Origin: Patescibacteria group bacterium
GTDB taxonomy: Bacteria > Patescibacteriota > Minisyncoccia > UBA6257 > 2-01-FULL-56-20
Assembly (NCBI GenBank): GCA_038077975.1
Contig: JBBUGM010000006.1
Coordinates: forward strand, 4,905 to 68,904
Direction of reading: 5' to 3'
Length of the DNA stretch: 64,000 nt
Below the pieces are notes generated by a model. The model was not told the DNA's origin. It searched no databases and worked only from the letters and a program-made list of their open reading frames with translations. The stretch's first letter is position 1; every line of letters begins with the position of its first letter. The translations under genes and the position numbers were made by a program. Positions 1,549 to 38,677 of this stretch are shown here, one piece after another.

Positions 1549-2521
1549 AAAGTTGATCTGGTCGGCGGGGTTTCTCGCGCTATTCCTGCTTCCACTAGGA
1601 TTATTTTTTTATGGACTGATGTCTAGAGATTCCGGGACTTTGCCGCAGACAAAAATTTTTGAAGTGAAAGAAGGAGAAGGTTTTTTGGGAATTTCCCATC
1701 GTCTTGAAGCAGAAGGGGTGATAAGGTCCGAACTTGCCTTCGAAACGTTGTCGTTCTTTACTGGCGCGGCGATCCATTTCAAGCCGGGTATTTATCAATT
1801 CGATTCGACAAAAAACGGCCTTGAGATCTTGCGCGAATTGACGTTTGGGCCGCACCGAGAGATTAGCGTGCGAATTCCCGAGGGCGCGAGCGTATATGAA
1901 GTTGACTCGATCTTGAGCGAGGCCGGCGTTGTTCCGCCGAGAGAACTCTTGGCATACGTTAAAGCACAAAGCCGGCCGATCGAAGGGCGCCTTTTCCCGG
2001 ACACATACAAATTTTTTACCGGTTCGCCACCGAAAGACATAATCGAAAAATTTTTAGAGAACTTCCGCGCGAAAACCGAAGGGTTTTTTGACAAGTTGAG
2101 CGAAGCCAAGATCAATGAAATTATCACGCTCGCTTCGATCATCCAAAAAGAAGTTCCCGGCGAAGAAGACGGGAGGATCGTGGCCGGAATACTCCTTAAG
2201 CGCCTTAAGGCGGGGGTTCCCCTACAAGTAGACGCATCAATATGCTACATTAAGAAAATATTGGGCTATCCGGGGGATTCCCCATGTTATCCACTTCACC
2301 CCCTTGACTTCAAGACGGAGTCGGATTATAATACATACTTACGTAAAGGACTGCCGCCAGGGCCCATTGGAAACCCTGGTATTTCTGCGCTTCGGGCGGC
2401 TCTTAGCCCAAAGAGCTCTTCATATTGGTATTACCTAAGCGACCCCGAAACGCAGCGAACAGTTTTTGCCAGCACGCTGGAAGAGCATAACGAAAATCGG
2501 GCTATGTATTTGGGATTATAA
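1523..2521 (+). CDS. mltG: MltG/YceG-like endolytic murein transglycosylase
   Basis: N-terminal TM, YceG-like motifs (ASIIQKEV, LQVDASICY); 26-nt overlap with the SEDS gene suggests one operon. Confidence 0.7.
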   Translation: MPLKGSRRKKLIWSAGFLALFLLPLGLFFYGLMSRDSGTLPQTKIFEVKEGEGFLGISHRLEAEGVIRSELAFETLSFFTGAAIHFKPGIYQFDSTKNGLEILRELTFGPHREISVRIPEGASVYEVDSILSEAGVVPPRELLAYVKAQSRPIEGRLFPDTYKFFTGSPPKDIIEKFLENFRAKTEGFFDKLSEAKINEIITLASIIQKEVPGEEDGRIVAGILLKRLKAGVPLQVDASICYIKKILGYPGDSPCYPLHPLDFKTESDYNTYLRKGLPPGPIGNPGISALRAALSPKSSSYWYYLSDPETQRTVFASTLEEHNENRAMYLGL

Positions 2522-2691
2522 ACCGGCGATAATAAAACTTTCGTAGCCGACTTTATTTCAAAAGAGGTCGTGTTAACTTAAGCAATCAAAATTAAAAAAT
2601 CACGCTTAAACCCTTCTCTTTGAGGAAGGGGTGCGGATTTTTGTCGTGTTTTTGTTCGGGACGTAAAAATGAGCGAATTTTAAATTCCAAA

Positions 2692-5600
2692 ATGTCGGAC
2701 AAATTGCCTAAAAAAGATTTCTCAAAATCAAAGCCGCTTGTTGAGCCATTTAACCTCAACGAGGCGCAGCTTAGGTCTTACCACTGGTTCATGGACCAGG
2801 GGCTCAAGGAACTTTTTGCGGAAATTTCTCCGATCACGGACAACACCGGCAAAGAACTGGAACTGCATTTCGGCAAGTACCGTTTCGACGAGCCGAAGTA
2901 TGACGAGGTGACATCGCGCTACAAAGACGCGACTTACGAAGCGGCACTAAGAGTTGAGTTGAAGCTGGTACACAAGTCGAGCGGCCGCTCGGAAAAACAA
3001 GAGGCCTATCTCGGCGATTTTCCGGTGATGACGCAGCGTGGCACATTTATTATCAATGGCGTGGAACGCGTTGTTGTTTCCCAGCTCATCCGTTCCGCCG
3101 GAGTTTACTTTACCGCCATTCCTTGGCGCGGACGACAGCTTTTTGGCGCCAAAGTCATCCCGAATCGCGGAGCCTGGCTGGAATTCGAGACGGATATCGA
3201 CGGCGCGATCGAAGTGAAGATCGACCGCAACAGAAAAGTTCCGGTTTCAAGCTTGCTCCGCATCTTCGGCATGGAAGACGAAAAGATCAAAGCCGCTTTT
3301 GCGGACGTTGAGAAGGGACAAACGCGCTACATCGACGCCACCTTCAAGAAGGACGTCGCCAAAAACCAGGAAGAATCGTATCTGGAAATTTACAGGCGTC
3401 TTCGGCCGGGCGATCCGGCAACGCCAGCGACCGCGAAGAACCTGATCGATGCGATGTTCGACCGCGTTGATCGATACGACATCTCCGAAGTCGGTCGTTT
3501 CAAGTTCAACCAGCGCTTGCGTCTTGACGCCAAAAACAAGAACCGATTGCTCGGCGCAGACGACCTTGTCGCCATCGTGCGCGAGATCATCACTTTGAAT
3601 AATCGAGTCGACGCGCAGCCGGACGACATCGATCACTTGGGGAATAGGCGGCTCAAAGCAGTCGGCGAGCTTATCCAAGGAAGATTGCGCATCGGGCTTG
3701 CCCGCTTGCGGAGAATAGTTCAGGATAGGATGTCTACCGAGGAGCGTGATAAGCTCATGCCCGGACAACTCATTAATTTCCGGCCGATCGCTGCGGTTGT
3801 TAAAGAATTTTTTTCTTCTTCCCAACTTTCACAATTTATGGATCAGGTTAACCCTCTCGCGGAATTGGAGCACAAACGCAGGATTTCCGCACTGGGTCCA
3901 GGAGGATTGACGCGCGAAAGAGCGAGTTTTGAAGTGAGAGACGTGCACCGCTCGCATTACGGCAGGATCTGTCCGATCCAAACTCCGGAAGGCGGCAATA
4001 TCGGGCTTATCAACTACTTGGCGAGTTTCGCCAAGATCAACGATTTCGGATTCGTCGAGACGCCTTACGCGAAGGTTGCGGACGGTCGCGTGACGGACGA
4101 AATAGTTTTGCTCGACGCGTTAGAAGAGGAAAGATACAGAATAACGCACGCCGGTGTTCAAAAAGACGCGGAAGGCAACCTTTTAGGCGATCGCGTTGAG
4201 GCGAGGGTAAAAGGAGTTGCCGGCACTTGCGCGCCAAAAGAAGTTGATTTTATCGATATTGCGCCGCATCAATTCGTAAGCGTCGCCACGTCCCTTATTC
4301 CTTTCCTTCAGCACGACGACGCGAACCGCGCCCTGATGGGTTCGAACATGCAAAGGCAGGCGGTGGTTTCCGTAAAACCCTCCGCGCCTTACGTTTCGAC
4401 GGGCGAGGAAGACCGCGTTGCCCTGGATTCCGGCTATGTTATTCAGGCCGAGAGCGCGGGCAAAGTGCTCGAAGCGGACGCGAGCCACATCACTATCAAA
4501 TATCAAAAAGGAGGCCTCAAAACCTACAACCTCGAAAAGTTCAAGAGATCGAACCAGTTCACTTGTATTTCGCAAAAACCGCTCGTCGTACCGGGCGCTG
4601 CGGTGAAGAAGGGCGATATTTTGGCGGACGGCCCCTCGATCGACAACGGCGTTCTCGCCCTTGGGCAGAATCTTTTGGTCGCCTTCATGTCTTGGGGCGG
4701 ATACAACTTCGAAGACGCCGTGATACTTTCCGAGCGCGTCGTGCAGGACGATCTTTTCACGTCGATCCACATCGAGGATTATTACTGTGATGTGCGTGAT
4801 ACGAAACTGGGCCCCGAGATAACGACTCCCGACATCCCAAACGTTTCCGAAGAGAAGTTAAGAAATTTGGACGAAGAAGGCATCATCAGGATCGGCGCGG
4901 AAGTCCGGGCCGGCGACATTTTGGTCGGAAAAATATCTCCGAAAGGAGAAGCGGAACTTACGCCAGAAGAGCGCTTGCTCCGTGCGATCTTCGGCGAGAA
5001 AGCGCGCGACGTTAAAGACACATCGCTCACGCTTTCGCACGGCAAACGCGGCCGCGTTATCAATATCAAAGTTTTTGACCGCGAGAAAGGCGACAAACTC
5101 GAGCCGGGAATCATCAAACGTATACAGGTTGAAATCGCGCAATTAAGAAAAGTGCAGGCGGGCGACAAGCTTGCCGGCAGGCACGGCAACAAGGGAGTTA
5201 TCTCGCAGGTTCGCAGAGTGGAAGATATGCCGCATCTTGAGGACGGCACGCCCGTGGACGTTATTTTGAACCCTTTGGGCGTCGCATCGCGCATGAACCT
5301 CGGACAGATCTTGGAAACCCACCTTGGCTGGGCGGCAAAGACGCTTGGCTACAGGGCGGTTACACCGGGACTTGATTCCGCGAGCGAGGAAGAGATCAAA
5401 GAAGAATTGAAGAAAGCCGGCCTTCCCGAAGACGGGAAAATTAAACTTTTCGACGGCCGCACGGGTAGGCCTTTCGACAAGAAGGTCGCGGTCGGAATCA
5501 TTTATATGATGAAGCTGAACCACTTGGTCGAAGACAAGGCGCACATGCGTTCGATCGGTCCCTACTCTTTGATCACGCAGCAGCCCTTGGGCGGCAAGGC

Positions 5601-14274: not shown

Positions 14275-15732
14275 ATGCAGTATTCGCCAACAATCGGCCT
14301 TGAGATACACGCGGAGCTCAAGACGCGGACAAAGATGTTCTGCGATTCTTTGAATGACCCGAATGAGAAGCACCCGAACACGAATGTTTGCCCGGTTTGT
14401 TTGGGGCATCCGGGTACGCTTCCCACGATAAATAAAGATGCCGTCCGGCACGTTCTTAAAGTCGGCCTAGCTTTGGGCGGGAAGATAAATCCGGTCACGA
14501 AATTCGACCGCAAGAATTATTTTTACCCCGACCTGCCGAAGGGATACCAAATTTCGCAATACGACCAGCCGCTTGTTTTGGGCGGGACTTTGAATGGTGT
14601 GCGCATAACAAGGGTGCATTTAGAGGAAGACACCGGTACATTAATACACCATGACAATAACGATGACAATGACAGAAAAAACAAAAGTCATAGTCATGGT
14701 CAAAAGTCATCGTACAGCCTTGTTGATTACAACAGGGCTGGAACCCCGCTTATGGAGCTTGTAACCGAGCCAGACTTGAAGTCGGCCGAAGAGGTCGTTG
14801 CTTTCGCAAAAGAGCTTCAGCTTATTTTGCGCTATCTCGGAGTTTCCGATGCCGACATGGAAAAAGGGCAGATGAGGATAGAAGCAAACGTGAGTATTAA
14901 CATGGGTACGAAAACGGAGCTCAAAAATATCAATTCGTTCAAGTTCGCCAAAGATGCGATCGAATACGAGATAAAGCGGCAGATCGAGGCCATGGAGGGC
15001 GGCCATGAGATTCGACAGGAAACTCGTGGCTGGGACGAAGCGAAGAAAAAAACCGTGAGCCAGCGCTCCAAAGAAGAAGCGCACGATTACCGCTATTTCC
15101 CCGAGCCGGATCTGCCGCCTTTCGAAACCGGCGCCTTTGATTTAGATAAATTACGGGTGGAAGTGCCGGAACTGCCGCAGGCGAAGCGAGCGCGCTTTAA
15201 AGAAGAATATGGGATCGACGAAAAGAAGGCGATGCTTTTGGCCGACGACCAAAAAACAGCAGAGTTTTTCGAGGAATATATTTCCGAACTCCAGAGTTTT
15301 TTGCCCGGAGCGAAGCCGGGCACAGGCGTGGATTATATTTTGAATGACCTCCGCGGCTTAATGGCCGAGTCCGGAGTGAATTTTGCCGATCTTAAAATCG
15401 AACCGGAGCACATTGCTCATCTCGAGGCCTTAATAAAAAAAGGCACGATTGGCAGCCGGCAGGCGAAAGACGTGCTCAAAAAAATGTTCGAAATCGGCGC
15501 CGACCCCGAGGACATCGTCCGTGACGAAGGGCTCGCCACGGTGAAGGACGAAGGCGAGATCAAATCCGTTATTGAAAGCGTCATTGTGGAAAATCCTTCC
15601 GCCGTCGCCGACTACAAAAAAGGCAAGGCGCAGGCGCTGCAGTTCTTGGTTGGCAAGGCGATGAGCAAGTTAAAGGGCAGGGGAGACCCCGGAAAGTTAA
15701 AAGAGATTCTTGAAAAGGCGCTAACGCAGTAG
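14275..15732 (+). CDS. gatB: Asp/Glu-tRNA(Asn/Gln) amidotransferase subunit B, with a low-complexity DNNDDNDRKNKSHSHGQ insertion
   Basis: GatB N-terminus MQYSPTIGLEIHAEL...CPVCLGHPGTLP; C-terminal GatB/YqeY helix. Confidence 0.9.
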   Translation: MQYSPTIGLEIHAELKTRTKMFCDSLNDPNEKHPNTNVCPVCLGHPGTLPTINKDAVRHVLKVGLALGGKINPVTKFDRKNYFYPDLPKGYQISQYDQPLVLGGTLNGVRITRVHLEEDTGTLIHHDNNDDNDRKNKSHSHGQKSSYSLVDYNRAGTPLMELVTEPDLKSAEEVVAFAKELQLILRYLGVSDADMEKGQMRIEANVSINMGTKTELKNINSFKFAKDAIEYEIKRQIEAMEGGHEIRQETRGWDEAKKKTVSQRSKEEAHDYRYFPEPDLPPFETGAFDLDKLRVEVPELPQAKRARFKEEYGIDEKKAMLLADDQKTAEFFEEYISELQSFLPGAKPGTGVDYILNDLRGLMAESGVNFADLKIEPEHIAHLEALIKKGTIGSRQAKDVLKKMFEIGADPEDIVRDEGLATVKDEGEIKSVIESVIVENPSAVADYKKGKAQALQFLVGKAMSKLKGRGDPGKLKEILEKALTQ

Positions 15733-15744
15733 TATGATGAGCGT

Positions 15745-16068
15745 ATGGCAAAAACAGCAGCTTCAAGCCCCATAACAGCGAAAGAAATAGTTGGCGTCAT
15801 ACTCCGCGACTACGGGCCGGTTGAAAAAGTTATTTTGTTTGGTTCGCGAGCAAGGGGGAATGCCGACGAATCAAGCGATCTCGACCTGATTGTCGTGAAG
15901 AATACCGACAAGCCGTTTGTACGACGATTGGTTGACGCCCCTTATTTTTCAATCCACTCCGACATATTTGTTTACACGCCCAAAGAATTTGAACAAATGC
16001 AAGAAAATGAGAACCCTTTTGTAATGAACGCGCTTGAGCACGGAGTTGTGTTGTATCCCGCGTCTTAA
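15745..16068 (+). CDS. minimal nucleotidyltransferase (MNT) antitoxin-like protein
   Basis: GSRARGNADESSDLDL pol-beta NTase motif, 107 aa. Confidence 0.75.
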   Translation: MAKTAASSPITAKEIVGVILRDYGPVEKVILFGSRARGNADESSDLDLIVVKNTDKPFVRRLVDAPYFSIHSDIFVYTPKEFEQMQENENPFVMNALEHGVVLYPAS

Positions 16069-16069
16069 C

Positions 16070-16480
16070 ATGAAAAATTCTTTTCTAAACGCTCGCCGCT
16101 GGCTGAGGCAGGCTGAATACGACTTTGAACAGGCAGAAAAATCATTTGACGACAAGTCGTACGCCTACGCCGCATTTTTCAGTGAGCAATCGGCACAAAA
16201 ATCACTAAAGGCAGCGCTTTTTAAGAGCGGGAAGCGGGCTATCACGATTCACTCGATTGCGGAACTGGCAAAAGAAGCCGCTGCTGTTGCGGACAAATCA
16301 TTTGCGGAACTTGTTGAAAGCGGCGCGCGGCTCGACAGGCACTACCTTGCCGCGCGTTACCCCGACGCTCTGCCCGAACCAGCCACCCCCTTCGAATCTT
16401 ATGTCGAACAAGACGCGGCAGAGGCGATAGCGTTTGCCCGCAAGATTCTCTCGGCCGCAAAGAAGTTTGTCGAGCGATAA
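16070..16480 (+). CDS. HEPN-domain protein (toxin partner of MNT)
   Basis: Immediately follows the MNT gene; HEPN-like helical protein of 136 aa from the internal ATG. Confidence 0.65.
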   Translation: MKNSFLNARRWLRQAEYDFEQAEKSFDDKSYAYAAFFSEQSAQKSLKAALFKSGKRAITIHSIAELAKEAAAVADKSFAELVESGARLDRHYLAARYPDALPEPATPFESYVEQDAAEAIAFARKILSAAKKFVER

Positions 16481-16500
16481 CGGCGTTTTCGCCAACCGGA

Positions 16501-16632
16501 GCCGCCGCCGACTACAAAAAAGGCAAAGCGCAGGCCTTGCAATTCTTAGTGGGCAAGGCGATGAGCAAGTTAAAGGGCAGGGGAGACCCGGAGAAGTTGA
16601 GGGAATTACTAAAGAAACAGCTGGGGACATAG
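16501..16632 (+). pseudogene. orphan duplicate of the gatB 3' end (attR-like remnant)
   Basis: About 85% identical to 15601-15732 at an exact 900-nt offset; a 20-nt identical core gccgactacaaaaaaggcaa, then decaying identity, ending at an in-frame tag. Confidence 0.7.
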
Positions 16633-16709
16633 TTGCGAGAGAAAATAACTTGGCAAAAACCTAAAGAGCACTAGAATGTGTTTAGAAGCTTTGAGCGGAG
16701 GGATGTAAG

Positions 16710-17045
16710 ATGGGCCTTCGATCTTGGTTGAGTAAGCACGTGGAAGAATTCCGAGTTGAACCCGAACCCGAGTGCGGACACGAAGTTCCATGTCTTTGCG
16801 ACAGCTATTTGCAGGGTCTCTCCTATGAGCAATTACTCAGATTGCGCGTAGGATACAGCATTGTTGTTCTTCCAGATCACTTTCAAAAGTCGCCGACATT
16901 GGCTGCGATTCCGATTATCATTGAGGGAGACGGCGCACCGGAAAATCCCCGAACTGAATTCAGGCGCGCCAAAAACGAAGCGAAATTGGCATGCGCGAAA
17001 ATAGACAGAGTTCTTCACGATAAGTTCAGAGTGATTTTCGTTTGA
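16710..17045 (+). CDS. hypothetical protein
   Basis: 111-aa ORF with GGAGGGA RBS. Confidence 0.4.
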   Translation: MGLRSWLSKHVEEFRVEPEPECGHEVPCLCDSYLQGLSYEQLLRLRVGYSIVVLPDHFQKSPTLAAIPIIIEGDGAPENPRTEFRRAKNEAKLACAKIDRVLHDKFRVIFV

Positions 17046-17168
17046 AGGTCGAATATTCATGGCTACGGCAACAACCGTAGCCATTTAGCTTATAAACGTT
17101 TGCCTTGCCTTTTGCGCGTCAGAGTGTAGCATCTAATCAGGAGCTTTGATACATTGAGGAGGTTAGCC

Positions 17169-17876
17169 GTGAAATTCCCGCATACGATAATTGATGCAGG
17201 CAGGGAGCGCCTTCAATCCTTTGAGGAATCTCTGAAAAAGATTAATCTTGCCGCTAGGGCGTCGCCGGATCGCCATGTTAAAACAGGGACGACCGTTGTG
17301 GCCTTTGTTAGTAAAGACGGACAAGTCGGCGTTATCGCGTCTGACGGTCGCATTTCGATGGGGACAATTTCTTTTAAGGAGGAATACAGGAAAATTTTCT
17401 CCTGTCGTATCGGCTTCGTCGGTGTTGCCGGTTCGTTGACCATGGTTCAGTTGGTCATGCCGAACTACAGATTGGACCTGAATAACTTTTGCGACGGGAG
17501 AAATCGTCTTGTTACCGCATCTGGCGCGGTCCACCGGCTTTTCCAGTATTATTTGCGTGCCGCACAACAGGAGGAAGGACAACTTGAATTACTGCCGCTT
17601 TTTTGGGATTTTGAAGAGAAGCAGTGCCGACTCTACGCGCTAGCGGGAATGTGTCACGTGAGAATGAATCACGCATGTGCGATCGGAAGCGGTGTTGGAG
17701 TAAATGGGCTGGATATTGACCGGCAATATACTCCGACGAATTCCAAAAGCCGTCTTATCGCCAATGCGCGCAAGTACATCATAAGGGCGTCTGCTAAAGA
17801 CGGCGCCACAAATCGCCACATTTTCTATGGAATTATAGATAAAGGGAAATTTGACGAAAAGGAGGAGGTGCTCTGA
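17169..17876 (+). CDS. prcB: proteasome beta subunit (Ntn hydrolase) with propeptide
   Basis: TG|TTVVAFVSKDGQVGVIASDGRISMG matches the beta N-terminus Thr1-Thr2 through D17 and K33 context; AGGAGG RBS then GTG start. Confidence 0.7.
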   Translation: MKFPHTIIDAGRERLQSFEESLKKINLAARASPDRHVKTGTTVVAFVSKDGQVGVIASDGRISMGTISFKEEYRKIFSCRIGFVGVAGSLTMVQLVMPNYRLDLNNFCDGRNRLVTASGAVHRLFQYYLRAAQQEEGQLELLPLFWDFEEKQCRLYALAGMCHVRMNHACAIGSGVGVNGLDIDRQYTPTNSKSRLIANARKYIIRASAKDGATNRHIFYGIIDKGKFDEKEEVL

Positions 17877-18619
17877 TGACCGGACTAGGCAGAGTGAACT
17901 ACGGCGCGTTTCTTGCGGACAAGAGAGCAGAGATTCTCAAACATTTGGAAGGATCTTTGCCGACAGTGATTGTCCCGACGTCAAGGGGCATCTATGTTTT
18001 TGCCGAGGAAATTGCTAAGGTCCATTCCACGATTTTGATCGCAGGCGCCGGAAGAATGCTTCCGTCCATTGCCGATTGGTATCGTGCCCAGATGACAGAC
18101 ATGGTTCAGGGCTGGAGTCCGCGCGAACCGAAAGCAAGCGCCGATGTCAATCTTCTGCAGCAGATTTTTTATCCGAACCTGAGCGTAGTGCCTGATGTTT
18201 TTCTGGCGGACCTTGTTCTTGTAGAAATTGGCGCGCAGAGAAGCAGCGACTACATTGCCCGCGTTGACGCTTTTTGCGAAATGAGCGATTTGAGCGACGA
18301 GAAAGTCGTCATAGTAAGTTATAGGGTCAGAAAAGAAAATGGCCACAACGATGACGAGAGCGTCGACGAGCCCGATACCCCATTATCAATAGAGGCCAGA
18401 AAGCAAGCGGAGGATGCCGTTAAAGCCGAGCGCGAAAACGAACTTAGATCTGAATTTTTAGATCTAGGCATGGCTTTGCCGGATAACATGGAAGAACGGC
18501 AAGGGGGAAAGGCAGGCCTTCTCAAGGCCCTAGAGGAGCAATATCCCGGTAAAGCCGTTTTACTCAGGCGCGATTTTGTCAGAAAAAAGGAGTTTGACTG
18601 GGTTTTTGAACCCCTGTGA
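17876..18619 (+). CDS. prcA: proteasome alpha subunit
   Basis: Pattern like actinobacterial PrcA (…SLPTVIVPTSRGIYVFAEE…ILIAGAGR…); TGATG overlap with prcB, GGAGGAGG RBS. Confidence 0.65.
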   Translation: MTGLGRVNYGAFLADKRAEILKHLEGSLPTVIVPTSRGIYVFAEEIAKVHSTILIAGAGRMLPSIADWYRAQMTDMVQGWSPREPKASADVNLLQQIFYPNLSVVPDVFLADLVLVEIGAQRSSDYIARVDAFCEMSDLSDEKVVIVSYRVRKENGHNDDESVDEPDTPLSIEARKQAEDAVKAERENELRSEFLDLGMALPDNMEERQGGKAGLLKALEEQYPGKAVLLRRDFVRKKEFDWVFEPL

Positions 18620-18625
18620 TAGTTT

Positions 18626-18658
18626 GTGCGGGCCCTCTTTTCGGGCCCGTTCTTTTTT
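18626..18658 (+). terminator. intrinsic terminator after prcBA
   Basis: gcgggccc-tcttttc-gggcccg followed by ttcttttttg. Confidence 0.55.
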
Positions 18659-18706
18659 GTTAGTATTGTGTTAGATGTTTGAACGCTTTGGTTATGGGAG
18701 GATGTG

Positions 18707-20389
18707 ATGCCGAGAGAAAATCCCGAAAGACAGCCGGAACTTAGCGCCCAAGAACTTTTGAATCGGCTGCGAAACTGCGAAGATGCATATGCCCGATCCG
18801 CTAGCGCGAACGATAAATTGGCCGAGTTGATTTTTAAACTTGCCCCGTTTAGAGAGCCGCCATACAGCTTGGCAGTTTTCGTTTCTCTGTCCGATATAAA
18901 CGACGGCAGGGAAGAAGGACTAAGAAGATCGCTCGCGTCGCTGGGGGTCGATTCACCCACGGACGGTTTTTCGAAGTGCTATCTTTTGCTGAATAACGGC
19001 GCCATGGCGATCGGCACGGTTGAAGATGAATTAGGAAGAGGCCTCAAGTCGGGACAAGTGGTTCTTGTAAGCGGCAACATGGGGGTTGTGGCCGCGGTTC
19101 CGGACGAAGAAATCAGGCATCTTAAAAGTGTTACGGTAGCGACCATCGAGCAAGTTGTGGACGATTTTATCCTGATTGACGACGGCGCCGGATATCGAGG
19201 CGGAGGCGTTGTTCTTTCTCCTCGTCTCCGGGAAGAGTTGGGGCGTAAACCTCTTGAGAACGGCGACAAAGTTCTGCTTTTTGGGAAATGTATTTTGCGC
19301 GTGCTTGAGAGACAGGAAAAGCGTATAGGTACGCTCGAGAAGGTGACGTTTGAGGATATCGGCGGCCTGGAAAAACAGGCGCAGGAAATCCGCGACCTTT
19401 TGGGCCTCGATTTCTCCGAGGAGCTTAAGCTCAAAATGAACAGAGAGTTTCCGCGGGGGGCGGTCCTTTACGGACCTCCCGGAAACGGCAAGACCCTACT
19501 TGCCCAAGTTTTGGGCAATGAGCTCGGATTTTTCATCGAGCTTGTCAGCGGTCCGGAAATAGAGAGTATGTGGGTTGGCGAAGGGCCGAAAATGATGAGA
19601 GCGAAGTTCGGGAGAGCCTATAAGAACAGGCCGTCTCTTCTGGTTTTTGACGAAGCTGATGTTCTTTTCCCGGTCCGCGGCGCCTCCGTTAGTGAGGGAT
19701 ACAAAACAGATTACCTTGCGCAGTTCAACGTTCTTATGCAGGGAGTTGAGAGTACCGCAGGCGTTTTCGTGCTTTTGCTGACGAATCGAGTTGACCGCAT
19801 TGATCCGGCAGCCATTCGAGCTGGGCGCGCGGATAAGAAAATTTTCATACCGCGTCCCGGTATGGACGGAGCCAAAAAAATCTTCTCGATCCATCTTAGG
19901 CGCTATCCTTTTGCCGGCGCGGATGACGATAAAACGAAAAGAAATCTCATGCGCGGACTTGCAGAGAAAGTGATCGAGGCAGTTTTCAGACGCGGGTCGG
20001 ATACACATCTTTTTACGGCTTTTCGCGGAACGGACGAGACAAGGTATTACATCAGAGATTTCGTTTCCGGAGCGCTGTTCAAAAATATAGCGGACGAGAT
20101 TTCTTTGCGCGCGATGAAGCGCCTTAAAGAGGATGGCACGGAAGCAGATTCTCCGCAGTGCGGTATCACAGAGATAGATGCGGACGGCGTTGCTGCCCAG
20201 GCGATCAGTAATGAGATACCGCGCGACGACGATTCGAGAAATCAATGGCTTTTAACGAACGGATATAAACCGGCAGACACATTTAGAAACGGTCCGGCTC
20301 TCGAGGACGAGAAAGAGCTGGCAAATCGCAGAAAAGTTATGATCCGCAGGCATGCAGTGAGGAAAACAAAGAAAAAGAGGCCCTCGTAA
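18707..20389 (+). CDS. ARC/Mpa-like AAA+ ATPase (proteasome-associated)
   Basis: N-terminal coiled coil, Walker A GPPGNGKT, Walker B LLVFDEAD; basic C-terminus lacking the usual GQYL tail. Confidence 0.7.
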   Translation: MPRENPERQPELSAQELLNRLRNCEDAYARSASANDKLAELIFKLAPFREPPYSLAVFVSLSDINDGREEGLRRSLASLGVDSPTDGFSKCYLLLNNGAMAIGTVEDELGRGLKSGQVVLVSGNMGVVAAVPDEEIRHLKSVTVATIEQVVDDFILIDDGAGYRGGGVVLSPRLREELGRKPLENGDKVLLFGKCILRVLERQEKRIGTLEKVTFEDIGGLEKQAQEIRDLLGLDFSEELKLKMNREFPRGAVLYGPPGNGKTLLAQVLGNELGFFIELVSGPEIESMWVGEGPKMMRAKFGRAYKNRPSLLVFDEADVLFPVRGASVSEGYKTDYLAQFNVLMQGVESTAGVFVLLLTNRVDRIDPAAIRAGRADKKIFIPRPGMDGAKKIFSIHLRRYPFAGADDDKTKRNLMRGLAEKVIEAVFRRGSDTHLFTAFRGTDETRYYIRDFVSGALFKNIADEISLRAMKRLKEDGTEADSPQCGITEIDADGVAAQAISNEIPRDDDSRNQWLLTNGYKPADTFRNGPALEDEKELANRRKVMIRRHAVRKTKKKRPS

Positions 20390-20458
20390 TGGGGGCCTCC
20401 TTTTATTTGCGGCAATGCCTTATAATGCAGATAGCATATTGATTCTAAGGAGAATAAG

Positions 20459-22000
20459 ATGGCGCTGATCATGGGTTCGGAAACGGAATTTGGACTGACT
20501 TCGCGCGGCAGAGCTGGCATCCACGATTTTTTATTCGAAATCGACAAACAGCGCGGCCCGGCGTTTACTTCAAGAAAAAGCGGTGAAGTTGCCGAGGCGG
20601 CAAAAAAATTGAATTGGTGGGGCGAGGATCTGTCTTTTGACGAAACAGTTGATAAGCGTGCGGGATTTGCGGATGTCGCTAGGCGCCTTGGCATGAGTGG
20701 AGATTATTTAAGCAACGGAGCTCGTTTTTACAGAGATTGCGGCCACCTGGAGTATTCTACGCCTGAATGCCGTAATCCGTGGGAATTGGTCGCTTACGAA
20801 AAGGCCGGCGAGGAGATCGTGCGTTTATGCGTCGCTCGCGCCGCGGAACGCCTCGGTTCGAAAGCAGATTTACTCAAAAGAAATGCCGATTATCATGACA
20901 GTTCTTACGCGTGTCATGCCAACTATCTTCTAAGCAGAAAGCTGTTCAATCTTCTGGTCCCGAGTTTTGATGTTGAAACCTTGGGAGCATCGGACTTTTT
21001 GAGTCGCGAGCAGGCCATTTGGACCGCGCACAACATCAGTATGCAGATATTTGCTGGCGCAGGGAGGATTGTCCCCGGCATTGCATGGCCGGATTGCTTT
21101 ATTCCTTCGCAGCGGCAGAAATTCATTACCCACTTTGCCGCCCTAGATACAACTCATGCGCGCAGTATCATTAATACCCGCGATAGACCCTATGCCGATC
21201 CGTCTCGGTTTGCGAGATTGCATGTAATTTGCTGCGACAGCAACAGGGCTGATTGGTCGAATATCTTGAAGTACGGCACGTCGTCCCTGGTTTTGGGAGC
21301 GCTTGAGGACTTCGCGGCATTAGAGAACGAAAGTTACGGTTATCTTACGCCGGCAAACGCGGTGCAAAGCTTCAGAAATCTCAAAGATAGAAATAGCCAG
21401 ATTGAAACTTCTGCTGGAATAATTACCGCTCTCGATATGCAGAGAAAAATCCTTGAATTTGCGGCTAATTGGCACCAAAAGCACGGGAAGCCCGGGTATG
21501 AATGGGCGCCGCTCCTTTTTGCCATGTGGAAAGAAATTCTTGATCTACTTGAGAGAGATGACGAAAAGTTGCGTATGCTACTCGATCGATATATCAAACA
21601 GAGGGTTTTTGAAAAAGGGTTTGGCAGTTCAGATCAAAACTCCCGGACGTTAAAGTCGTTAGAGCACAACTATCATCTCGTAGATCACAACTCTCTTTTC
21701 GGCCGATTAGAGAAGGAAGGACACGTTGATGTTGTTGTCGGGAGCGACGACGTAGAAGCGGCTTTTGCTTCTCCGCCGCCCACAAGAGCCAGCCTTCGTT
21801 GCAGATTACTCCGGTTTTTAAAGAAAAGATTCGAAGATGGTCGCGGGGTTGTGTCTTGGCACTCTTTGGGCTTCACCGATGGTCGCAGGAAAGTTTTTAT
21901 TTCACTTCCTGACCCTGCGTCAAGCCGCGCACATGAAATTTCCGAAGAGAAAAGTTCGTTTTCAGAGAGATTATTTTCTCGCAAAAGGATCTGGGGTTAA
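20459..22000 (+). CDS. PafA/Dop-family protein (Pup ligase or depupylase), paralog 1
   Basis: GSETEFG N-terminus and NGARFYRDCGHLEYSTPEC signature of the PafA/Dop carboxylate-amine ligase fold. Confidence 0.75.
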   Translation: MALIMGSETEFGLTSRGRAGIHDFLFEIDKQRGPAFTSRKSGEVAEAAKKLNWWGEDLSFDETVDKRAGFADVARRLGMSGDYLSNGARFYRDCGHLEYSTPECRNPWELVAYEKAGEEIVRLCVARAAERLGSKADLLKRNADYHDSSYACHANYLLSRKLFNLLVPSFDVETLGASDFLSREQAIWTAHNISMQIFAGAGRIVPGIAWPDCFIPSQRQKFITHFAALDTTHARSIINTRDRPYADPSRFARLHVICCDSNRADWSNILKYGTSSLVLGALEDFAALENESYGYLTPANAVQSFRNLKDRNSQIETSAGIITALDMQRKILEFAANWHQKHGKPGYEWAPLLFAMWKEILDLLERDDEKLRMLLDRYIKQRVFEKGFGSSDQNSRTLKSLEHNYHLVDHNSLFGRLEKEGHVDVVVGSDDVEAAFASPPPTRASLRCRLLRFLKKRFEDGRGVVSWHSLGFTDGRRKVFISLPDPASSRAHEISEEKSSFSERLFSRKRIWG

Positions 22001-22012
22001 AGGAGGCGAACG

Positions 22013-23533
22013 ATGGTCAGATATTTTGGCACGGAAAGCGAACACAACGTTTCTTATCGTTCGAAGGAGGGAAAGATCCATAATTCCGCCAACGACGGAC
22101 TTCTGTCGCGCAACCCGCCCACTTTAGCCGATACGGAAATTTTACTGTCGGACATTAGCCCGGGAGAGCTTGGGCGTGACATCTTTTTTAACCCGAGCAA
22201 TATTTGGCTTGCGAACGGAGGCAGGCTATACAAAGACGGAGCTCTTACGGAATATGCCACTCCCGAATGCCAAAGCGCAAAGGAGTTGGTTCTTGCCGAG
22301 ATGGCCGGAGACGAAATTGTGGCGCGCGTAGTGAACAAATTAGCCGATGCCAAAGACGTCTACGCCCTTAAAAGAAGCGCTTCGAAAGAAATGGATTTAA
22401 CGCGCGGAGCCCATGAAAGCTACGCGATTCCGGAGAGTTTTCACAAGGAGCTGATAACGGATATGACGTTGAGCCACCGCATTTTCAAGTTTTTTTCGGC
22501 CAGCCGTCAAACTTTTGCCGGAGCCGGCCACCTTGGTTATCTCGGGAGAGACAAGGTGTCTCATCTTATGTTCTGGGTCAGTCCTAGAATATACTTTATC
22601 GACCTTGAGCTGAATACTGGCACAGTAAGGAACACCGGGCGAGCTTTGGTAAACTCCCGTATTAAACCGCTTGTGGCGGGAAACCTCGAGGGGATGCAGA
22701 GGTTACACTGCATAGTCGGCGACATGAATCGGTCTCCGTGGTCGATTTATCTCAAAATAGGAGTCACGGTTTTGGTCTTGGAGTTTCTTCAACTCGTTAG
22801 TTATGAAGCGTTGAATCGTCTTGGCGGAAAGATGAAGTCGGACGGCACGTTGATTCACCGAGCGAAGGCAGCCACGCTTTTCCTAAACGACAATGCCCTG
22901 AAAGACGACTTTGATTTTTTACTCGATATCCAATACCGCTTAAGCGATGCGGTTTGGGGCATGAGGGAAGAGATTTCCGAAAGACACAATGAATTTGAAG
23001 AGATTTTTTCTTTATGGCGGGAAGCGTTGGATGCCGCGGCCTCTGAAGGCGTTGCGCGCAAGAAATTTGAGAAGCGGCTCGATTGGCTGATCAAAAGGAA
23101 GTTTATTCGCGAACTCGTCGGCGGAGAGATTCCTGCTTTGGACAAAATAGAACGAGGCGATAAATTGCGCAAATTACTTTCTTTCGACTTTGCGTATCAC
23201 CGGGTTAACCACAAAGACCTGTATAAATTTCTGGTTAAGTCGGGCGCCATTGAAGAGAAATATGCGGAAAGCGAAGCTGCGCATTATCTCTCTAGCCCTC
23301 CGGGAGGAAGGGCGAAAAGCCGCGTGTTGATTGCGAGACGAGCGCAGGAGTTAGGCATAGTGAGAAATATCACCGATTTTGACTGGGCAAGAATAGGTTT
23401 TATCCGGGATCTTCTGCCGCAGGCCGATTACGACAGAAGAGTGCCGCCGAGACGAGAAATAGCGTTTGACGACAGAAGCCCGGAAACGTTAAAATTACAC
23501 TTAGAAGATATATACAACTGGATTCGAGGGTGA
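22013..23533 (+). CDS. PafA/Dop-family protein, paralog 2
   Basis: GTESEHN N-terminus and NGGRLYKDGALTEYATPEC; GGAGG RBS. Confidence 0.75.
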   Translation: MVRYFGTESEHNVSYRSKEGKIHNSANDGLLSRNPPTLADTEILLSDISPGELGRDIFFNPSNIWLANGGRLYKDGALTEYATPECQSAKELVLAEMAGDEIVARVVNKLADAKDVYALKRSASKEMDLTRGAHESYAIPESFHKELITDMTLSHRIFKFFSASRQTFAGAGHLGYLGRDKVSHLMFWVSPRIYFIDLELNTGTVRNTGRALVNSRIKPLVAGNLEGMQRLHCIVGDMNRSPWSIYLKIGVTVLVLEFLQLVSYEALNRLGGKMKSDGTLIHRAKAATLFLNDNALKDDFDFLLDIQYRLSDAVWGMREEISERHNEFEEIFSLWREALDAAASEGVARKKFEKRLDWLIKRKFIRELVGGEIPALDKIERGDKLRKLLSFDFAYHRVNHKDLYKFLVKSGAIEEKYAESEAAHYLSSPPGGRAKSRVLIARRAQELGIVRNITDFDWARIGFIRDLLPQADYDRRVPPRREIAFDDRSPETLKLHLEDIYNWIRG

Positions 23534-23536
23534 TCC

Positions 23537-23686
23537 ATGCCAGGTCAGAAACAGCGCGAAAGGCATAAACCCGAAGAAGAGGACAGTCAATTCCCAAAGC
23601 CGCCATCCCCGCTCGACGACATACTCAAAGATTTTGTTGAAGAGCAGGAAGAGGTTTTGGATCAGGAAGAAGACGACGGAGAATAA
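23537..23686 (+). CDS. Pup/UBact-like small acidic ubiquitin-like modifier candidate (49 aa, C-terminal Gly-Glu)
   Basis: Not in the ORF track (under 60 aa). Translates to MPGQKQRERHKPEEEDSQFPKPPSPLDDILKDFVEEQEEVLDQEEDDGE; starts 3 nt after the PafA/Dop paralog 2 stop and is followed by a terminator. Confidence 0.55.
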   Translation: MPGQKQRERHKPEEEDSQFPKPPSPLDDILKDFVEEQEEVLDQEEDDGE

Positions 23687-35123: not shown

Positions 35124-37073
35124 ATGGCGGTTGACGAGATAAAAAAGACGGGTCTTCCGCGCGGAATTGGTTGGGGGATTTTCGCGCTGATTTTGGTTTT
35201 CATCGGCGGGCTATTTTTAACTTTCGGCCGGACGAAAGATATTACCGCGGAAAGGGTGGCAGGCAACATCGATGAATTGAAGAGCGGCGTCGAAGACCTG
35301 CGCAACTTTAACACCGAATCGGCTAAAGAGAGATTTTCTCGAATAGGAACGGAGATAGTCGATATTAGGGATTCGGTGGGAATTTTCGGCTCGCTTTTTA
35401 GTGGCACGGGAGAGCTTTTGCTAAATTTTCAAAACGTGACAGCGCAAGGCATCGCCTTGAGTGGCGAGATGGAATTCCTGCGCGCGAACGCGCTCGGTCT
35501 TTTCCTTGAAGACGGAAAGACGCTTCTCGAACATCTTAAAACTGTCCAGGGTGCGCTTAGAAGTGTTGATGAGTCGGCGCGCAAGCTCGCTACGGCGGCG
35601 TCCGGTCTCAATGAGGCCGCTTCGCTCGCCGGAGAATTCTATTTGCCGTTCCAGCTCGATCTCGCGCGGTTCATGGGTTTTCTTGATGCGCTTTTGCCGA
35701 AGCTCGAAGCGGAAGAGATAAATTTTTTGGTCCTTTTCCAAAATCCGTCGGAGATAAGGCCCGCGGGAGGATTTCTCGGGAGCTATGCCGTGGTTTCGGT
35801 GAAGGGGGGCCAGCTCCAAAACGTGGAAGTGCACGACGTAAACGACGTCGACCGTACTTTTGAAGATAAGATCACGCCGCCGCGGCCGCTTCAGGCGGTT
35901 GCGAGGTCATGGCGTCCGTATGACGCAAATTGGTTTTTCGATTTTGCTCTCTCGGCAAAAAAGGTTGCGAAATTTTTCGAGACATCCGGACTGTACCGAG
36001 ACAAGGCCGCCCCTGACGGTGCCGCAGCCCCGTTTGACGGGGTGATGGCAGTTTCTCCTAAGGTTGTCGAAGACATTCTTGCGCTTACCGGCCCCATCGA
36101 ACTACCGGAAAGAAAATTGGTTTTTAATGAAGATAATTTTTTGATGGAAACCCAGCGCCTTGTGCAGGAAGGCCAGGCGACGAACTCGACATATCCCAAA
36201 AAAATATTGGAAGAACTCGCGCCGCTTATATTTGAGCGCGTCAAAACGATGGACGACGCGCAAAAAAATGAATTTTGGAATTTGGTTTCTGATTGGATCA
36301 GCCGCAAGGACATTATGGTTTATTTTGTGGAGCCGAAACTCCAGAGTTTCGCGCGGTACTACGGGGCAACGGGTGAGACATACGAATTATCGCAGGATTG
36401 GAATGGCAATTACTTAGCGCTCGTCGATGCGAACATTGGCGGCGGCAAATCGGATCTTTTCATTAAGCAAAATATCGTCTTGGAGAGCCAGATCAATGCC
36501 GACGGCACTATTTCCAACCATCTGGTCGTTGATCGCATCCACGAGGGTAATAGATCGAAGTACTGGTGGTACAAGGAAACGAACCAAAATTACCTTCAGG
36601 TTTTCGTGCCAAGTTCCGCGCGGCTTACGAACTTCAAAGGTGGCGTGGACAAAACAATTACGCCGAAAGTGAATTACGTAAAAGAGGGATATGACGTGGA
36701 CAGCGATGTTTCCGCTATCGAAAGTTCGGAGGAAGCGGTTTTCAATTTCCCTGCGGTTCGTATGCACAAAGAACTGGGCAAGTCGGTTTTCTCCACCTGG
36801 TCGGCAACAAAAGCGGGCGCGAGAACACAGCTTGTTTTCGATTACGTGACGCGGCTCGCTCTCGCTCCCGAGGACGGAGTGGAATATCACTTTGTTTTCG
36901 AAAAACAAGCCGGGACTGCTCGCAATTATAAATTCCAGATCAGCGCCCCGGCCGGATTTCGTTTCGCGGAGAGCGGCTTGCCGGTATTTGCGTATGAAGC
37001 AGTGAGTAACGCTACGTCTTCTAGTGCGCTCCCGGGGCGGTTGATCGTAGATTTGACATTGGAGAGGATCTGA
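35124..37073 (+). CDS. DUF4012-like membrane-anchored extracytoplasmic protein
   Basis: N-terminal TM, 649 aa, motif NPSEIRPAGGFLGSYAVV recalled from the DUF4012 family. Confidence 0.5.
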   Translation: MAVDEIKKTGLPRGIGWGIFALILVFIGGLFLTFGRTKDITAERVAGNIDELKSGVEDLRNFNTESAKERFSRIGTEIVDIRDSVGIFGSLFSGTGELLLNFQNVTAQGIALSGEMEFLRANALGLFLEDGKTLLEHLKTVQGALRSVDESARKLATAASGLNEAASLAGEFYLPFQLDLARFMGFLDALLPKLEAEEINFLVLFQNPSEIRPAGGFLGSYAVVSVKGGQLQNVEVHDVNDVDRTFEDKITPPRPLQAVARSWRPYDANWFFDFALSAKKVAKFFETSGLYRDKAAPDGAAAPFDGVMAVSPKVVEDILALTGPIELPERKLVFNEDNFLMETQRLVQEGQATNSTYPKKILEELAPLIFERVKTMDDAQKNEFWNLVSDWISRKDIMVYFVEPKLQSFARYYGATGETYELSQDWNGNYLALVDANIGGGKSDLFIKQNIVLESQINADGTISNHLVVDRIHEGNRSKYWWYKETNQNYLQVFVPSSARLTNFKGGVDKTITPKVNYVKEGYDVDSDVSAIESSEEAVFNFPAVRMHKELGKSVFSTWSATKAGARTQLVFDYVTRLALAPEDGVEYHFVFEKQAGTARNYKFQISAPAGFRFAESGLPVFAYEAVSNATSSSALPGRLIVDLTLERI

Positions 37074-37129: not shown

Positions 37130-37408
37130 GTGAAGAAAGCACTTGTGTCACTTTTCGTTCTGATGGCTGTGGCCTCCACACTCAACTTCATGGCAAATCA
37201 AAAAGTTACCGATAAAGTCACTGATTACGATTCTCTTGCGGTTGTGCATCAAACACGCGACGGATGGTTTGTAACCCATCCTTCATTCGCGCGACGCCTG
37301 CCCGATGAAATGAAGGATCTGTTCCCAATCCCACGCCGCATCTCAATTCATTACGAATTCCTAAAGAAAGAAAAAGTAGTAATTACGACAGAAACGATAG
37401 AGTACTAA
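37130..37408 (+). CDS. small secreted protein
   Basis: GGAGG RBS, signal-peptide-like N-terminus MKKALVSLFVLMAVAS. Confidence 0.45.
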   Translation: MKKALVSLFVLMAVASTLNFMANQKVTDKVTDYDSLAVVHQTRDGWFVTHPSFARRLPDEMKDLFPIPRRISIHYEFLKKEKVVITTETIEY

Positions 37409-37531
37409 GTTCTTTTCCCCTAGCCCCGTGCGATTTCCGCGCGGGGTTTTCTTTTACGGACCAGAATTTTTACCTTGCGAGCCCAAAATTTTCCGATTGC
37501 AATCCAGCAAAAAATTTGGTACAATTAAAGT

Positions 37532-37777
37532 ATGAAAACAAACATTTTAAGGCGGCTTCCAAAAAACCTTTATGGATATTTTTGGGAAATTGATCGGAAG
37601 TCTCTCGACGCTAAAAAGTATGGCGCGTACATCGTTAAACGCCTTTTGGAGCATGGCCGGCCGGAGGCGATCCGTTGGGCGTGGAAACATATCCCAAGGC
37701 GGGTATGGCGTAAGGCGCTCCAGTCGCGCGAGATTTCGCAAAGAACCCGCTCGTTTTGGGAATCGCTCGTGCGCTGA
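37532..37777 (+). CDS. small basic protein, putative AbiEi-like antitoxin partner
   Basis: 81-aa ORF ending 9 nt before the AbiEii-like gene. Confidence 0.35.
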   Translation: MKTNILRRLPKNLYGYFWEIDRKSLDAKKYGAYIVKRLLEHGRPEAIRWAWKHIPRRVWRKALQSREISQRTRSFWESLVR

Positions 37778-37786
37778 CACACTTTT

Positions 37787-38425
37787 ATGGTTGTCCTCGA
37801 CAATCTGCCAAAAAATACGCGGGGCGCCCTCGAAAAACTTGCCGGCGCCGCTTTTATAAAAAAATTTTATCTTGCCGGCGGCACGGCCGCGACGCTTTTT
37901 TTTAGACACCGGGAATCCAAAGACCTCGATTTCTTTTCCGAGGACCATTTTCGGACACCAACACTTATTAGACACCTCGCGAAAATCGGCTCATTCGTTA
38001 CTACTAAAACCGCAGAAGATACGCTAGAAGGCAGATTTGAAAAAGTAAAAATTAGCTTTTTCACGCTTCCATACAAATTGCTCGAAAAATCGCTCAAGTA
38101 CAAAAATATGCGCATTGCTTCCCTGGTTGATATTGCGACGATGAAAATTCTTGCCATATCTGATCGCGGTACGCGGCGCGATTTTATAGATCTTTACTGT
38201 CTGGCTACGCGGGTAAAGCCGCTCGACAAACTACTTCTCGATTTTGAGAGAAAATTCGGGAAATACGACTACAATTTACACCACATCATCGCAAGCTTAA
38301 CTTATTTCAAGGACGCAGAGGAGGAACCGATACCGCATCTTTATATCGATCTTGAGTGGAAGAATGTTAAGAGGTTTTTTTTACACGAAAAACCGCTTCT
38401 TGCAAAGAAGTTTTTGATTGGATAG
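37787..38425 (+). CDS. AbiEii/DUF1814-like nucleotidyltransferase toxin
   Basis: YLAGGTAATLFFRHRESKDLDFF nucleotidyltransferase motif. Confidence 0.7.
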   Translation: MVVLDNLPKNTRGALEKLAGAAFIKKFYLAGGTAATLFFRHRESKDLDFFSEDHFRTPTLIRHLAKIGSFVTTKTAEDTLEGRFEKVKISFFTLPYKLLEKSLKYKNMRIASLVDIATMKILAISDRGTRRDFIDLYCLATRVKPLDKLLLDFERKFGKYDYNLHHIIASLTYFKDAEEEPIPHLYIDLEWKNVKRFFLHEKPLLAKKFLIG

Positions 38426-38486
38426 TTCCCTTGGCGACAAAGCCTCTTCTGCCTTCTCCGACTCGACAGAGGCGAGGCGAGCGAGA

Positions 38487-38559
38487 TCGGCTTGCCGGTA
38501 TTTGCGTATGAATCGCACGAATCTTCATCATCGACGAATCAGATGCCGGGGCGGTTGAT
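38487..38559 (+). pseudogene. orphan duplicate of the 3' end of the DUF4012-like gene (attR-like remnant)
   Basis: 25-nt identical core cggcttgccggtatttgcgtatgaa (36974-36998 vs 38487-38511), a diverged middle, then shared ccggggcggttgat. Confidence 0.6.
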
Positions 38560-38677
38560 ATCATATTTTGCGCGACGCAGATTTAACGGCGGATGAATTG
38601 ATGAATTTGTTATAGACTAATTTGATTTTTATCGAGCATTAAGATATACTGCGGGCAGTACTTAGAGGAGGATTCAC

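Follow-up and report, generated by a model that had tools for sequence, protein, structure and literature searches.

How a two-gene toxin-antitoxin (TA) cassette came to lie between two copies of the end of an essential gene is the question raised by a 64,000-nucleotide (nt) stretch of a groundwater genome of the Patescibacteria, which are part of the candidate phyla radiation (GenBank assembly GCA_038077975.1, contig JBBUGM010000006.1, positions 4,905 to 68,904 of the forward strand), here called the window. At this locus, the last codons of gatB, the gene for subunit B of the Asp/Glu-tRNA amidotransferase, recur downstream of the gene, with a minimal nucleotidyltransferase (MNT) gene and a HEPN-domain gene in between. 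A sequence-only reading of the locus had proposed that a small cassette was integrated there by site-specific recombination. We see about an even chance that a foreign MNT-HEPN cassette entered joined to a foreign gatB 3' end, through the homology of that end. The features on which this argument is built are the following, in window coordinates.

14275..15732, + strand: gatB, intact, 485 amino acids (aa) (PF02934, 357 bits; PF02637, 130 bits)
15601..15733, + strand: repeat copy 1, the working last 43 codons of gatB with the stop codon and 1 nt more
15606..15626, + strand: 21-nt run identical between the copies
15652..15689, + strand: 38-nt run identical between the copies, the longest and in the middle of the repeat, codons GKAMSKLKGRGDP; candidate crossover or gene-conversion tract
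15745..16068, + strand: MNT gene, 107 aa, predicted antitoxin, motif GSRARGNADESSDLDL (PF18765, PF01909)
16070..16480, + strand: HEPN-domain gene, 136 aa, predicted toxin (PF05168)
16501..16633, + strand: repeat copy 2, displaced gatB tail, AAADYKKGKAQALQFLVGKAMSKLKGRGDPEKLRELLKKQLGT followed by a stop, without gene body or upstream start codon

Direct comparison of the two gatB tails showed that they form a direct repeat with a spacing of 900 nt and that they match at 105 of 133 positions (79%), identity being 90% in the first 98 nt and only 47% in the last 34 nt. The duplication described by the sequence-only reading is therefore real (15601-15733 against 16501-16633), and so is the lack of a gene body in the downstream copy, which is in the gatB frame and has its stop codon at the homologous position; the identity of about 85% that had been given comes down to 104/132 (79%) in the alignment. 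A 20-nt core had been placed at the upstream end, and it is indeed there (15607-15626, within the run of 21 nt), but the longest identical run is the 38-nt one in mid-repeat; contrary to the earlier description, identity thus does not just fall off with distance from the upstream end. The borders of the repeat are abrupt, with only 2 matches in the 20 nt immediately upstream and 8 in the 27 nt immediately downstream. An extension upstream to 16465, which a hidden Markov model (HMM) match had suggested, was dropped because direct comparison gave those 2/20 matches. Within the window, this pair is the sole direct repeat of at least 35 nt with copies no more than 6 kb apart, and a search of the window for the two identical cores found both at the two repeat sites only, where shuffled sequences lead one to expect none.

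A duplication of this kind in metagenomic data could result from a chimeric join of strain variants, and short-k Logan contigs do break inside the 38-nt identical run. The arrangement is, however, 100% identical in three independent assemblies from Hainich groundwater samples, obtained from different samples with different assemblers and with contigs of up to 180 kb, which argues that it is not an assembly artefact. Furthermore, the copies differ at 28 positions, amino-acid changes included, and analogous structures are found in unrelated data sets. We thus regard an artefact as extremely improbable.

The 767 nt between the copies hold two co-oriented genes, MNT first and HEPN second. Both are intact, and they do not overlap as the sequence-only reading had it, being separated by a 1-nt spacer. 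The fit between cassette and repeat is tight: MNT starts 12 nt past the gatB stop, and copy 2 starts 20 nt past the HEPN stop. The MNT protein matches PF18765 (41.2 bits, cut-off 26.9) and PF01909 (41.1 bits, cut-off 21), carries the GS...DxD motif as GSRARGNADESSDLDL, reaches 32 bits against a cut-off of 60 with the NCBIfam MntA model, and has HI0073 and MNT chains as relatives in PDB. The HEPN protein matches PF05168 (94.2 bits, cut-off 22), gives no match to PF01934, has TT1696, 1WOL and TM0613 as PDB relatives and carries RLDRH (R-x3-H) inside a conserved RLDRHYLxxRYPDA block, the ribonuclease (RNase) motif that was sought being Rx4-6H. The cassette is thus predicted to be an MNT-HEPN TA pair, in which HEPN would be a putative RNase toxin and MNT its antitoxin, and by family assignment it would belong to the PF05168 branch and not to the experimentally studied HepT/MntA (type VII) branch. 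The closest HEPN homologues are 70% identical and spread over several phyla; a look for relatives that would reveal a donor gave no HEPN homologue above 70% and below 100% identity. The cassettes are also lower in GC content at third codon positions (GC3) than their hosts, and we count both this and the spread of HEPN homologues over phyla in favour of a foreign origin of the cassette. No Rfam family matched between 15300 and 17200, and a look-up of one window protein gave no record.

The way in which the two tails differ carries most of the argument. By the Nei-Gojobori method, copies 1 and 2 are separated by 16.5 synonymous and 11.5 non-synonymous differences, which corresponds to proportions of differences per synonymous site (pS) and per non-synonymous site (pN) of 0.59 and 0.11, respectively, and to a pN/pS of 0.19; in the first 32 codons, there are 8 synonymous vs 2 non-synonymous differences. 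Simple decay of the downstream copy following a duplication in place would leave about half of the divergence unconstrained, with an expected pN/pS of about 0.5 or more. Analogous cases gave a pN/pS of 0.23 (gatB tails of another Patescibacteria locus, L055) and of 0.05 (secA tails of an Acidobacteria locus, L096), and pooling these two loci with the window gave 41 synonymous and 28 non-synonymous differences, with P = 1.8e-11 against neutrality and P = 1.1e-5 against a model in which one copy is neutral. Copy 2 also retains 9/9 of the positions that are invariant in the alignment of GatB tails. This synonymous bias, together with the kept frame, stop codon and invariant residues, indicates that each tail diverged within a working gatB; since they then are two functional alleles, one of them would have entered from another lineage along with the cassette. 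These results support the part of the sequence-only reading according to which a small TA cassette was inserted with its own gatB terminus. Synonymous divergence this deep also makes 38 identical nt unexpected by chance, from which we infer that this run is a crossover or gene-conversion tract.

We then looked at gatB ends elsewhere, in a survey of 80 species-level gatB loci and four closer relatives; the nearest GatB homologues of the window are from Patescibacteria, at 72-79% identity. Three further gatB tail displacements were found, all in Patescibacteria loci (L055, L087 and L088). In L055 (GatB 51% identical), gatB is followed by a two-gene cassette, the toxin of which is RelE/YoeB-like with scores below curated thresholds, and then by an intact copy of the gatB tail. 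Its repeat begins within about 4 codons of the start of the window repeat, its copies differ almost exclusively at third codon positions, and they share a 44-nt identical run at gatB codons homologous to those of the 38-nt run. In L087, a 221-aa gene without known family (3328-3993) is followed by a 17-codon gatB tail remnant. In L088, the closest relative (GatB 79% identical), an intact gatB is followed 79 nt on by a frameshifted tail remnant, with no genes between. As a control, we took 1070 stop-to-stop open reading frames (ORFs) of at least 150 aa from 85 loci and the window and searched for a recurrence of their tails within 3.5 kb downstream: the clear tail repeats were the two gatB cases and a second case in the window, at a DUF4012 gene, and the other matches were the intergenic repeat of locus L091 read as ORFs, a scaffold-gap artefact and two repeat pairs that we did not count (L037 and L043).

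The L088 locus also bears on which tail is native. Its remnant matches window copy 2 at 57/83 nt, the two having a common ending LLKKxL, and is far less like window tail 1 or the functional tail of L088 itself. Judging from these few sites, copy 2 may be the native tail type of a small clade in which the window and L088 lineages were hit independently. Tail 1 of the window is nearest to P0003-type tails (74%), and the remaining C-terminal domain is nearest to P0002; tail 1, or at least its 3' part, would thus be the incoming foreign tail. Window and L088 have functional tails that diverge in the middle (AMSKLKGRGDPGKL vs VMQKTKGRAQVDKL), and the two displacements therefore look independent. 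Two other approaches to the origin of the tails were abandoned: no clear mosaic breakpoint was seen in gatB upstream of the tail, P0002 being the nearest relative right up to it, and base composition left too few sites to separate host and donor halves.

A duplicated arrangement without TA genes, which the sequence-only reading had named as a finding that would speak against it, is thus partly what L088 presents, although we read this locus as a probable independent displacement in which the cargo was lost or never present. It raises another scenario, in which a foreign gatB allele first recombined without cargo and the TA cassette landed later between the two tails. That the closest relative has a functional tail and a remnant 79 nt apart with nothing between them, and that this remnant resembles window copy 2, would fit such a sequence of events. 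The functional tails of the two lineages nevertheless differ so markedly that their displacements look independent, repeats hug the TA cassette on both sides in at least 8 other loci, and in the window only 12 nt and 20 nt separate the cassette genes from the gatB stop and from copy 2, respectively. We find this order of events quite unlikely.

Other observations made on gatB concern its neighbourhood and the protein itself. The gene directly 3' of gatB is a different one in each close relative, being an SLFN/AlbA_2 gene in L085 (6680-7669), the gene for the 221-aa protein in L087 and the TA pair in the window, so that the position after gatB seems to behave as a variable hot spot. The GatB protein of the window has a low-complexity insertion HHDNNDDNDRKNKSHSHGQKSS (14640-14712) that is common to P0002 and P0004 and absent from other relatives, while two GatB homologues of 646-650 aa (P0028 and P0054) carry an in-frame PDDEXK_3 domain (GxxExxY, PF13366) in a variable loop of the catalytic domain.

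Is this bracketing by gene ends peculiar to gatB? Scanning metagenomes with an alignment of HEPN proteins returned 80 loci, and 47 of the MNT-HEPN cassettes had flanks of 400 nt or more on either side. A direct repeat of at least 40 nt brackets 8/47 of these cassettes, compared with 2/117 shifted control segments, and the bracketing repeats consist of local host sequence that differs from locus to locus. Displaced tails are found again at gatB, and at further conserved genes too, around TA genes of other families. Examples, one of them in the window itself, are listed below.

L096 (Acidobacteria), 1943-3462: secA SEC-C (zinc-motif) tail in three copies, the third degenerate, with HicB-HicA between copies 1 and 2 and MNT-HEPN between copies 2 and 3
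L091: perfect 59-nt (59/59) intergenic repeat next to secA, with a homologous MNT-HEPN cassette
L102: head of a pilT-like gene, fused in frame to MNT, with MNT-HEPN
L152: tail of an opposite-strand gene (GH76-like), with MNT-HEPN
L045 (Patescibacteria), 904-2477: tail of rplK (ribosomal protein L11), with an MNT-HepT pair
Window 36966..37046, + strand: second case, copy 1, part of the 3' tail of the DUF4012 gene (35124-37073)
Window 37130..38425, + strand: second case, cargo, namely a 92-aa ORF, a DUF6922 protein (37532-37777) and an AbiEii toxin-type nucleotidyltransferase (37787-38425)
Window 38480..38560, + strand: second case, copy 2, a decayed DUF4012 tail with 55% aa identity and identical runs of 25 nt and 14 nt (tblastx E = 1.5e-7)

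In L096, copies 1 and 2 of the secA tail differ by 5 synonymous changes and 1 non-synonymous change, and the locus looks like a stack of TA cassettes, each trailed by a copy of the same gene's tail. In the last 8 codons of the rplK tails of L045, there are 4 synonymous and 0 non-synonymous differences. The cargo of the second case in the window matches PF21956 (36 bits) and PF08843 (60 bits). Several apparent repeats were set aside: a glyA tail duplication in L017 (3130-3250) was a scaffold-gap artefact (an N run with repeated ends), the repeat of L008 is a palindromic repeat element, in L099 and L111 it is promoter or small-ORF units of tandem cassettes that recur, and the repeat pairs of L037, L043, L077 and L156 were left out of the examples. 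Elsewhere, in L002 (3247-4089), a reverse-transcriptase gene fragment (PF00078) is bracketed by direct repeats of 60 nt, which are 95% identical and contain the beginning of a pilin-like gene.

Some of these brackets look young, which brings in the possibility that the window repeat arose de novo. An illegitimate event leading to an "insertion with long target duplication" would have copied 133 nt of the resident gatB, the copies would have diverged in place, and gene conversion would have kept their middle alike. The perfect 59-nt repeat of L091 and the repeat of L110, the copies of which are 97% identical, resemble fresh target duplications, the DUF4012 tail copy has decayed as expected of an unconstrained copy, and this mode of insertion is documented for restriction-modification genes (PMC2853133). 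Divergence between the gatB tails is, however, strongly synonymous, a pS of 0.59 is too deep for a copy without frameshift, stop or invariant-residue change, and L055 and L096 show the same synonymous bias. For the window, we hold a de novo duplication to be improbable.

Another explanation is the site-specific integration proposed by the sequence-only reading: a tyrosine or serine recombinase, now elsewhere or lost, would have joined an attP carrying a gatB terminus to an attB in gatB, leaving attL and attR. Much of the geometry would suit it, since the upstream border is abrupt with 26 near-identical nt, homology ends at the stop codon and an element-supplied tail restores the gene; gatB tails have also been hit repeatedly, twice from almost the same codon. 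Against it, no recombinase or integrase family was found among the genes called within 6 kb of gatB or at 22.5-43.7 kb of the window, and the unit holds two TA genes only. At L055, the upstream end of the repeat lacks an identical core, and the gatB tail there differs from that of the window at many positions. Related cassettes do not reuse the attachment core either: their flanks are a secA tail, intergenic DNA, a pilT-like head and a GH76-like tail, and cassettes of one family lying between repeats of unrelated sequence are not what a single dedicated att site predicts. A scan of 2.9 million viral contigs with the GatB-tail alignment gave no attP-type gatB-tail fragment, returning just two phage proteins with a YqeY-like C-terminal domain. 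Site-specific recombination thus found little support, and we consider it unlikely. Integron features were also looked for: the flanking repeat is gatB coding sequence, no RNA or structured family matched at 15300-17200, and no integrase was found nearby.

The viral scan also drew attention to small proteins with GatB/YqeY-tail-like C-termini (…DYKKGK…GQVMKE.KGKA…) in L094 (7533-8141) and L095 (7665-8141), which are complete phage genes and not attachment fragments.

Entry of the cassette by homology of the gatB end, the reading that we prefer, could have followed two routes. In the first, a circular molecule made of a gatB tail and the cassette would integrate by a single Campbell-type crossover (insertion-duplication); in the second, a double crossover would take place with a donor fragment that already held the cassette between two gatB tails. 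The outcome of either route would be a gatB that ends in a working tail and is followed by the cassette and, beyond it, by the displaced native tail; the essential gene would stay unbroken throughout, and a dedicated integrase would be unnecessary. The recombination would presumably be RecA-dependent and follow DNA uptake. Recombination between the two tails could later excise the cassette as a circle and leave gatB intact, although the toxin would probably then select against loss of the TA pair. Both routes fit the intact gene, the allele-like divergence of the repeats and the strong conservation of the gene ends involved (gatB, the secA zinc motif, rplK). Insertion-duplication by a single crossover of circular DNA is a standard laboratory outcome. 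Genes for homologous recombination and competence have been reported from Patescibacteria (PMC12455944). Homology does not account for how a first bracketed unit arises at a new site: that may take an insertion with long target duplication, of an illegitimate kind, for which homology-facilitated illegitimate recombination (PMC3240628) would be a candidate process. One more element of the locus may belong to the incoming unit.

15710..15738, + strand: promoter-like TTGAAA-17 nt-TATGAT, covering the 3' end of tail 1 with the gatB stop and lying 6 nt upstream of the MNT ATG

Copy 2 has no promoter-like match in the corresponding part, and the element in copy 1, as a match to the consensus only, would fit tail 1 being part of what came in.

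Several points weigh against this preferred reading. The direction and mechanism of the event are deduced from sequence patterns in segments of at most 44 codons. Homologous recombination would be inefficient between tails this diverged and, at a pS of about 0.6, the 38-nt identity needs an extra assumption, either that heteroduplex was repaired at the crossover or that gene conversion followed. The perfect intergenic repeat of L091 excludes a distant donor, and the duplication must therefore arise de novo in at least some events. The cargo-less remnant of L088 indicates that tail displacement can occur without a cassette, and a recombinase encoded elsewhere in the genome could still have acted. 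Finally, exact-protein look-ups with MNT and the downstream ORF found no same-species empty site, donor genome, circular or excised form: they returned the same strain only, or contigs breaking inside the 38-nt run. The comparison with empty sites that had been suggested gave a single gatB end in the relatives L085 and L001 (GatB 72-75% identical), with no insert-free genome of the same species found. One of the contigs returned, L084, is a Logan contig of 922 nt corresponding to 15660-16581, with both ends inside the 38-nt run and an overlap of 22 nt. A break in a short-k assembly graph explains these ends, but a 900-nt circle would look alike.

Taking all loci into account, a wider reading can be put forward tentatively, and we think it possible rather than probable: TA and abortive-infection cassettes in Patescibacteria and other phyla may form an integrase-less mobile class that uses a portable housekeeping-gene end (gatB, secA or rplK; 3' end or 5' head) as a homology arm, relies on host recombination, keeps the gene active, stacks in tandem and is excised through its repeats. 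If so, a conserved gene end would be to these cassettes what a tRNA gene is to integrase-bearing islands.

The comparison with known systems places the window close to several of them. Phage 21 and e14 integrate in icd and other elements in tRNA genes, with the element supplying a replacement gene end. As in those cases, a diverged copy of the terminus keeps the target gene intact in the window, the original end is left as a far remnant, and the differences are largely synonymous. Unlike the window unit, which measures 900 nt and holds two TA genes with no recombinase nearby, those elements encode an integrase and span many kb; the cassette family of the window also uses unrelated flanks elsewhere. 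A search of the literature found no paper on gatB as an attachment site.

Small promoter-containing cassettes exchanged at fixed positions are known from the TA cassettes of chromosomal integrons and from the "minimal mobile elements" of Neisseria. The units described here resemble integron cassettes in being small, often TA pairs and able to stack in tandem (L096), but they differ in that there is no attC-like site or integron integrase and in that the window repeat is coding sequence of the neighbouring gene. Unlike the window unit, the Neisseria elements are replaced without duplication, by a double crossover that uses two different flanking genes.

Campbell-type insertion-duplication, as used for mutagenesis and tagging in Streptococcus and Bacillus, is like the first proposed route in that one crossover duplicates the segment of homology, in that the gene works if its 3' end is included, and in that the process is RecA-dependent and integrase-free. 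Unlike what we propose, insertion-duplication and homology-facilitated illegitimate recombination (PMC3240628) are known from the laboratory, as tools or as rare events, and not as a natural and recurrent route for TA cassettes, and no circular intermediate was seen here.

A close precedent is the insertion with long target duplication of restriction-modification complexes (Nobusato et al. 2000; Furuta, Abe and Kobayashi 2010, PMC2853133; review PMC3874152). Such insertions have been described without an integrase and with repeats of about 100 bp, for the most part from species that are naturally competent (PMC2853133, PMC3874152). By the definition of such duplications, the insert is shorter than 20 kb and lacks mobility genes, and the direct repeats are longer than 30 bp and made of local sequence. 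The window conforms to it, with an insert of 767 nt, gatB repeats of 133 nt and no mobility gene nearby. Near-identical copies derived from the resident target are seen in L091 (59/59) and L110 (97%) but not in the window, where identity is 79% with a synonymous bias. Both types of insertion involve a small addiction-type complex without mobility gene, flanked by direct repeats of local sequence, of variable length (30 to several hundred bp), that often cover the 3' end of a gene, and the life cycle proposed for restriction-modification insertions, with excision or amplification through the repeats, is also the one considered here. The window differs from them in that its cargo is a TA pair, in that its repeats differ like two functional alleles, implying a foreign tail copy, and in that its repeat coincides exactly with the end of the coding sequence of an essential gene. 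It is thus a variant of a known rearrangement, carried over to TA cassettes, and its distinctive trait is that the repeat is a foreign allele of the terminus of an essential gene. In the searchable literature, we found no description of TA cassettes with long target duplication.

Chromosomal TA modules plainly transfer horizontally, most of them without a mobility gene, by a route that has long been unclear. If the pattern seen here holds, a cassette would travel with a piece of a conserved essential gene and host recombination would insert it without breaking that gene. This would account for how ultra-small, competent Patescibacteria with packed genomes gain defence and addiction genes beside essential genes, and would extend long target duplication from restriction-modification genes to other addiction modules. 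A repeated gene tail could then serve as a sequence signature for finding recent insertions, and their donors, in metagenomes.

Beyond copy 2, the window continues with native genes.

16710..17045, + strand: first native gene downstream, 111 aa, without family match, followed by proteasome and Pup-ligase genes

These last genes are part of an apparently complete Pup-proteasome set (17154-23686), which comprises a proteasome-family subunit, a 247-aa ORF without family match, an AAA ATPase and two Pup-ligase family genes. In the same region, a 49-aa acidic ORF ending in ...DDGE and a stop looks like Pup, and a Lon protease gene comes next.

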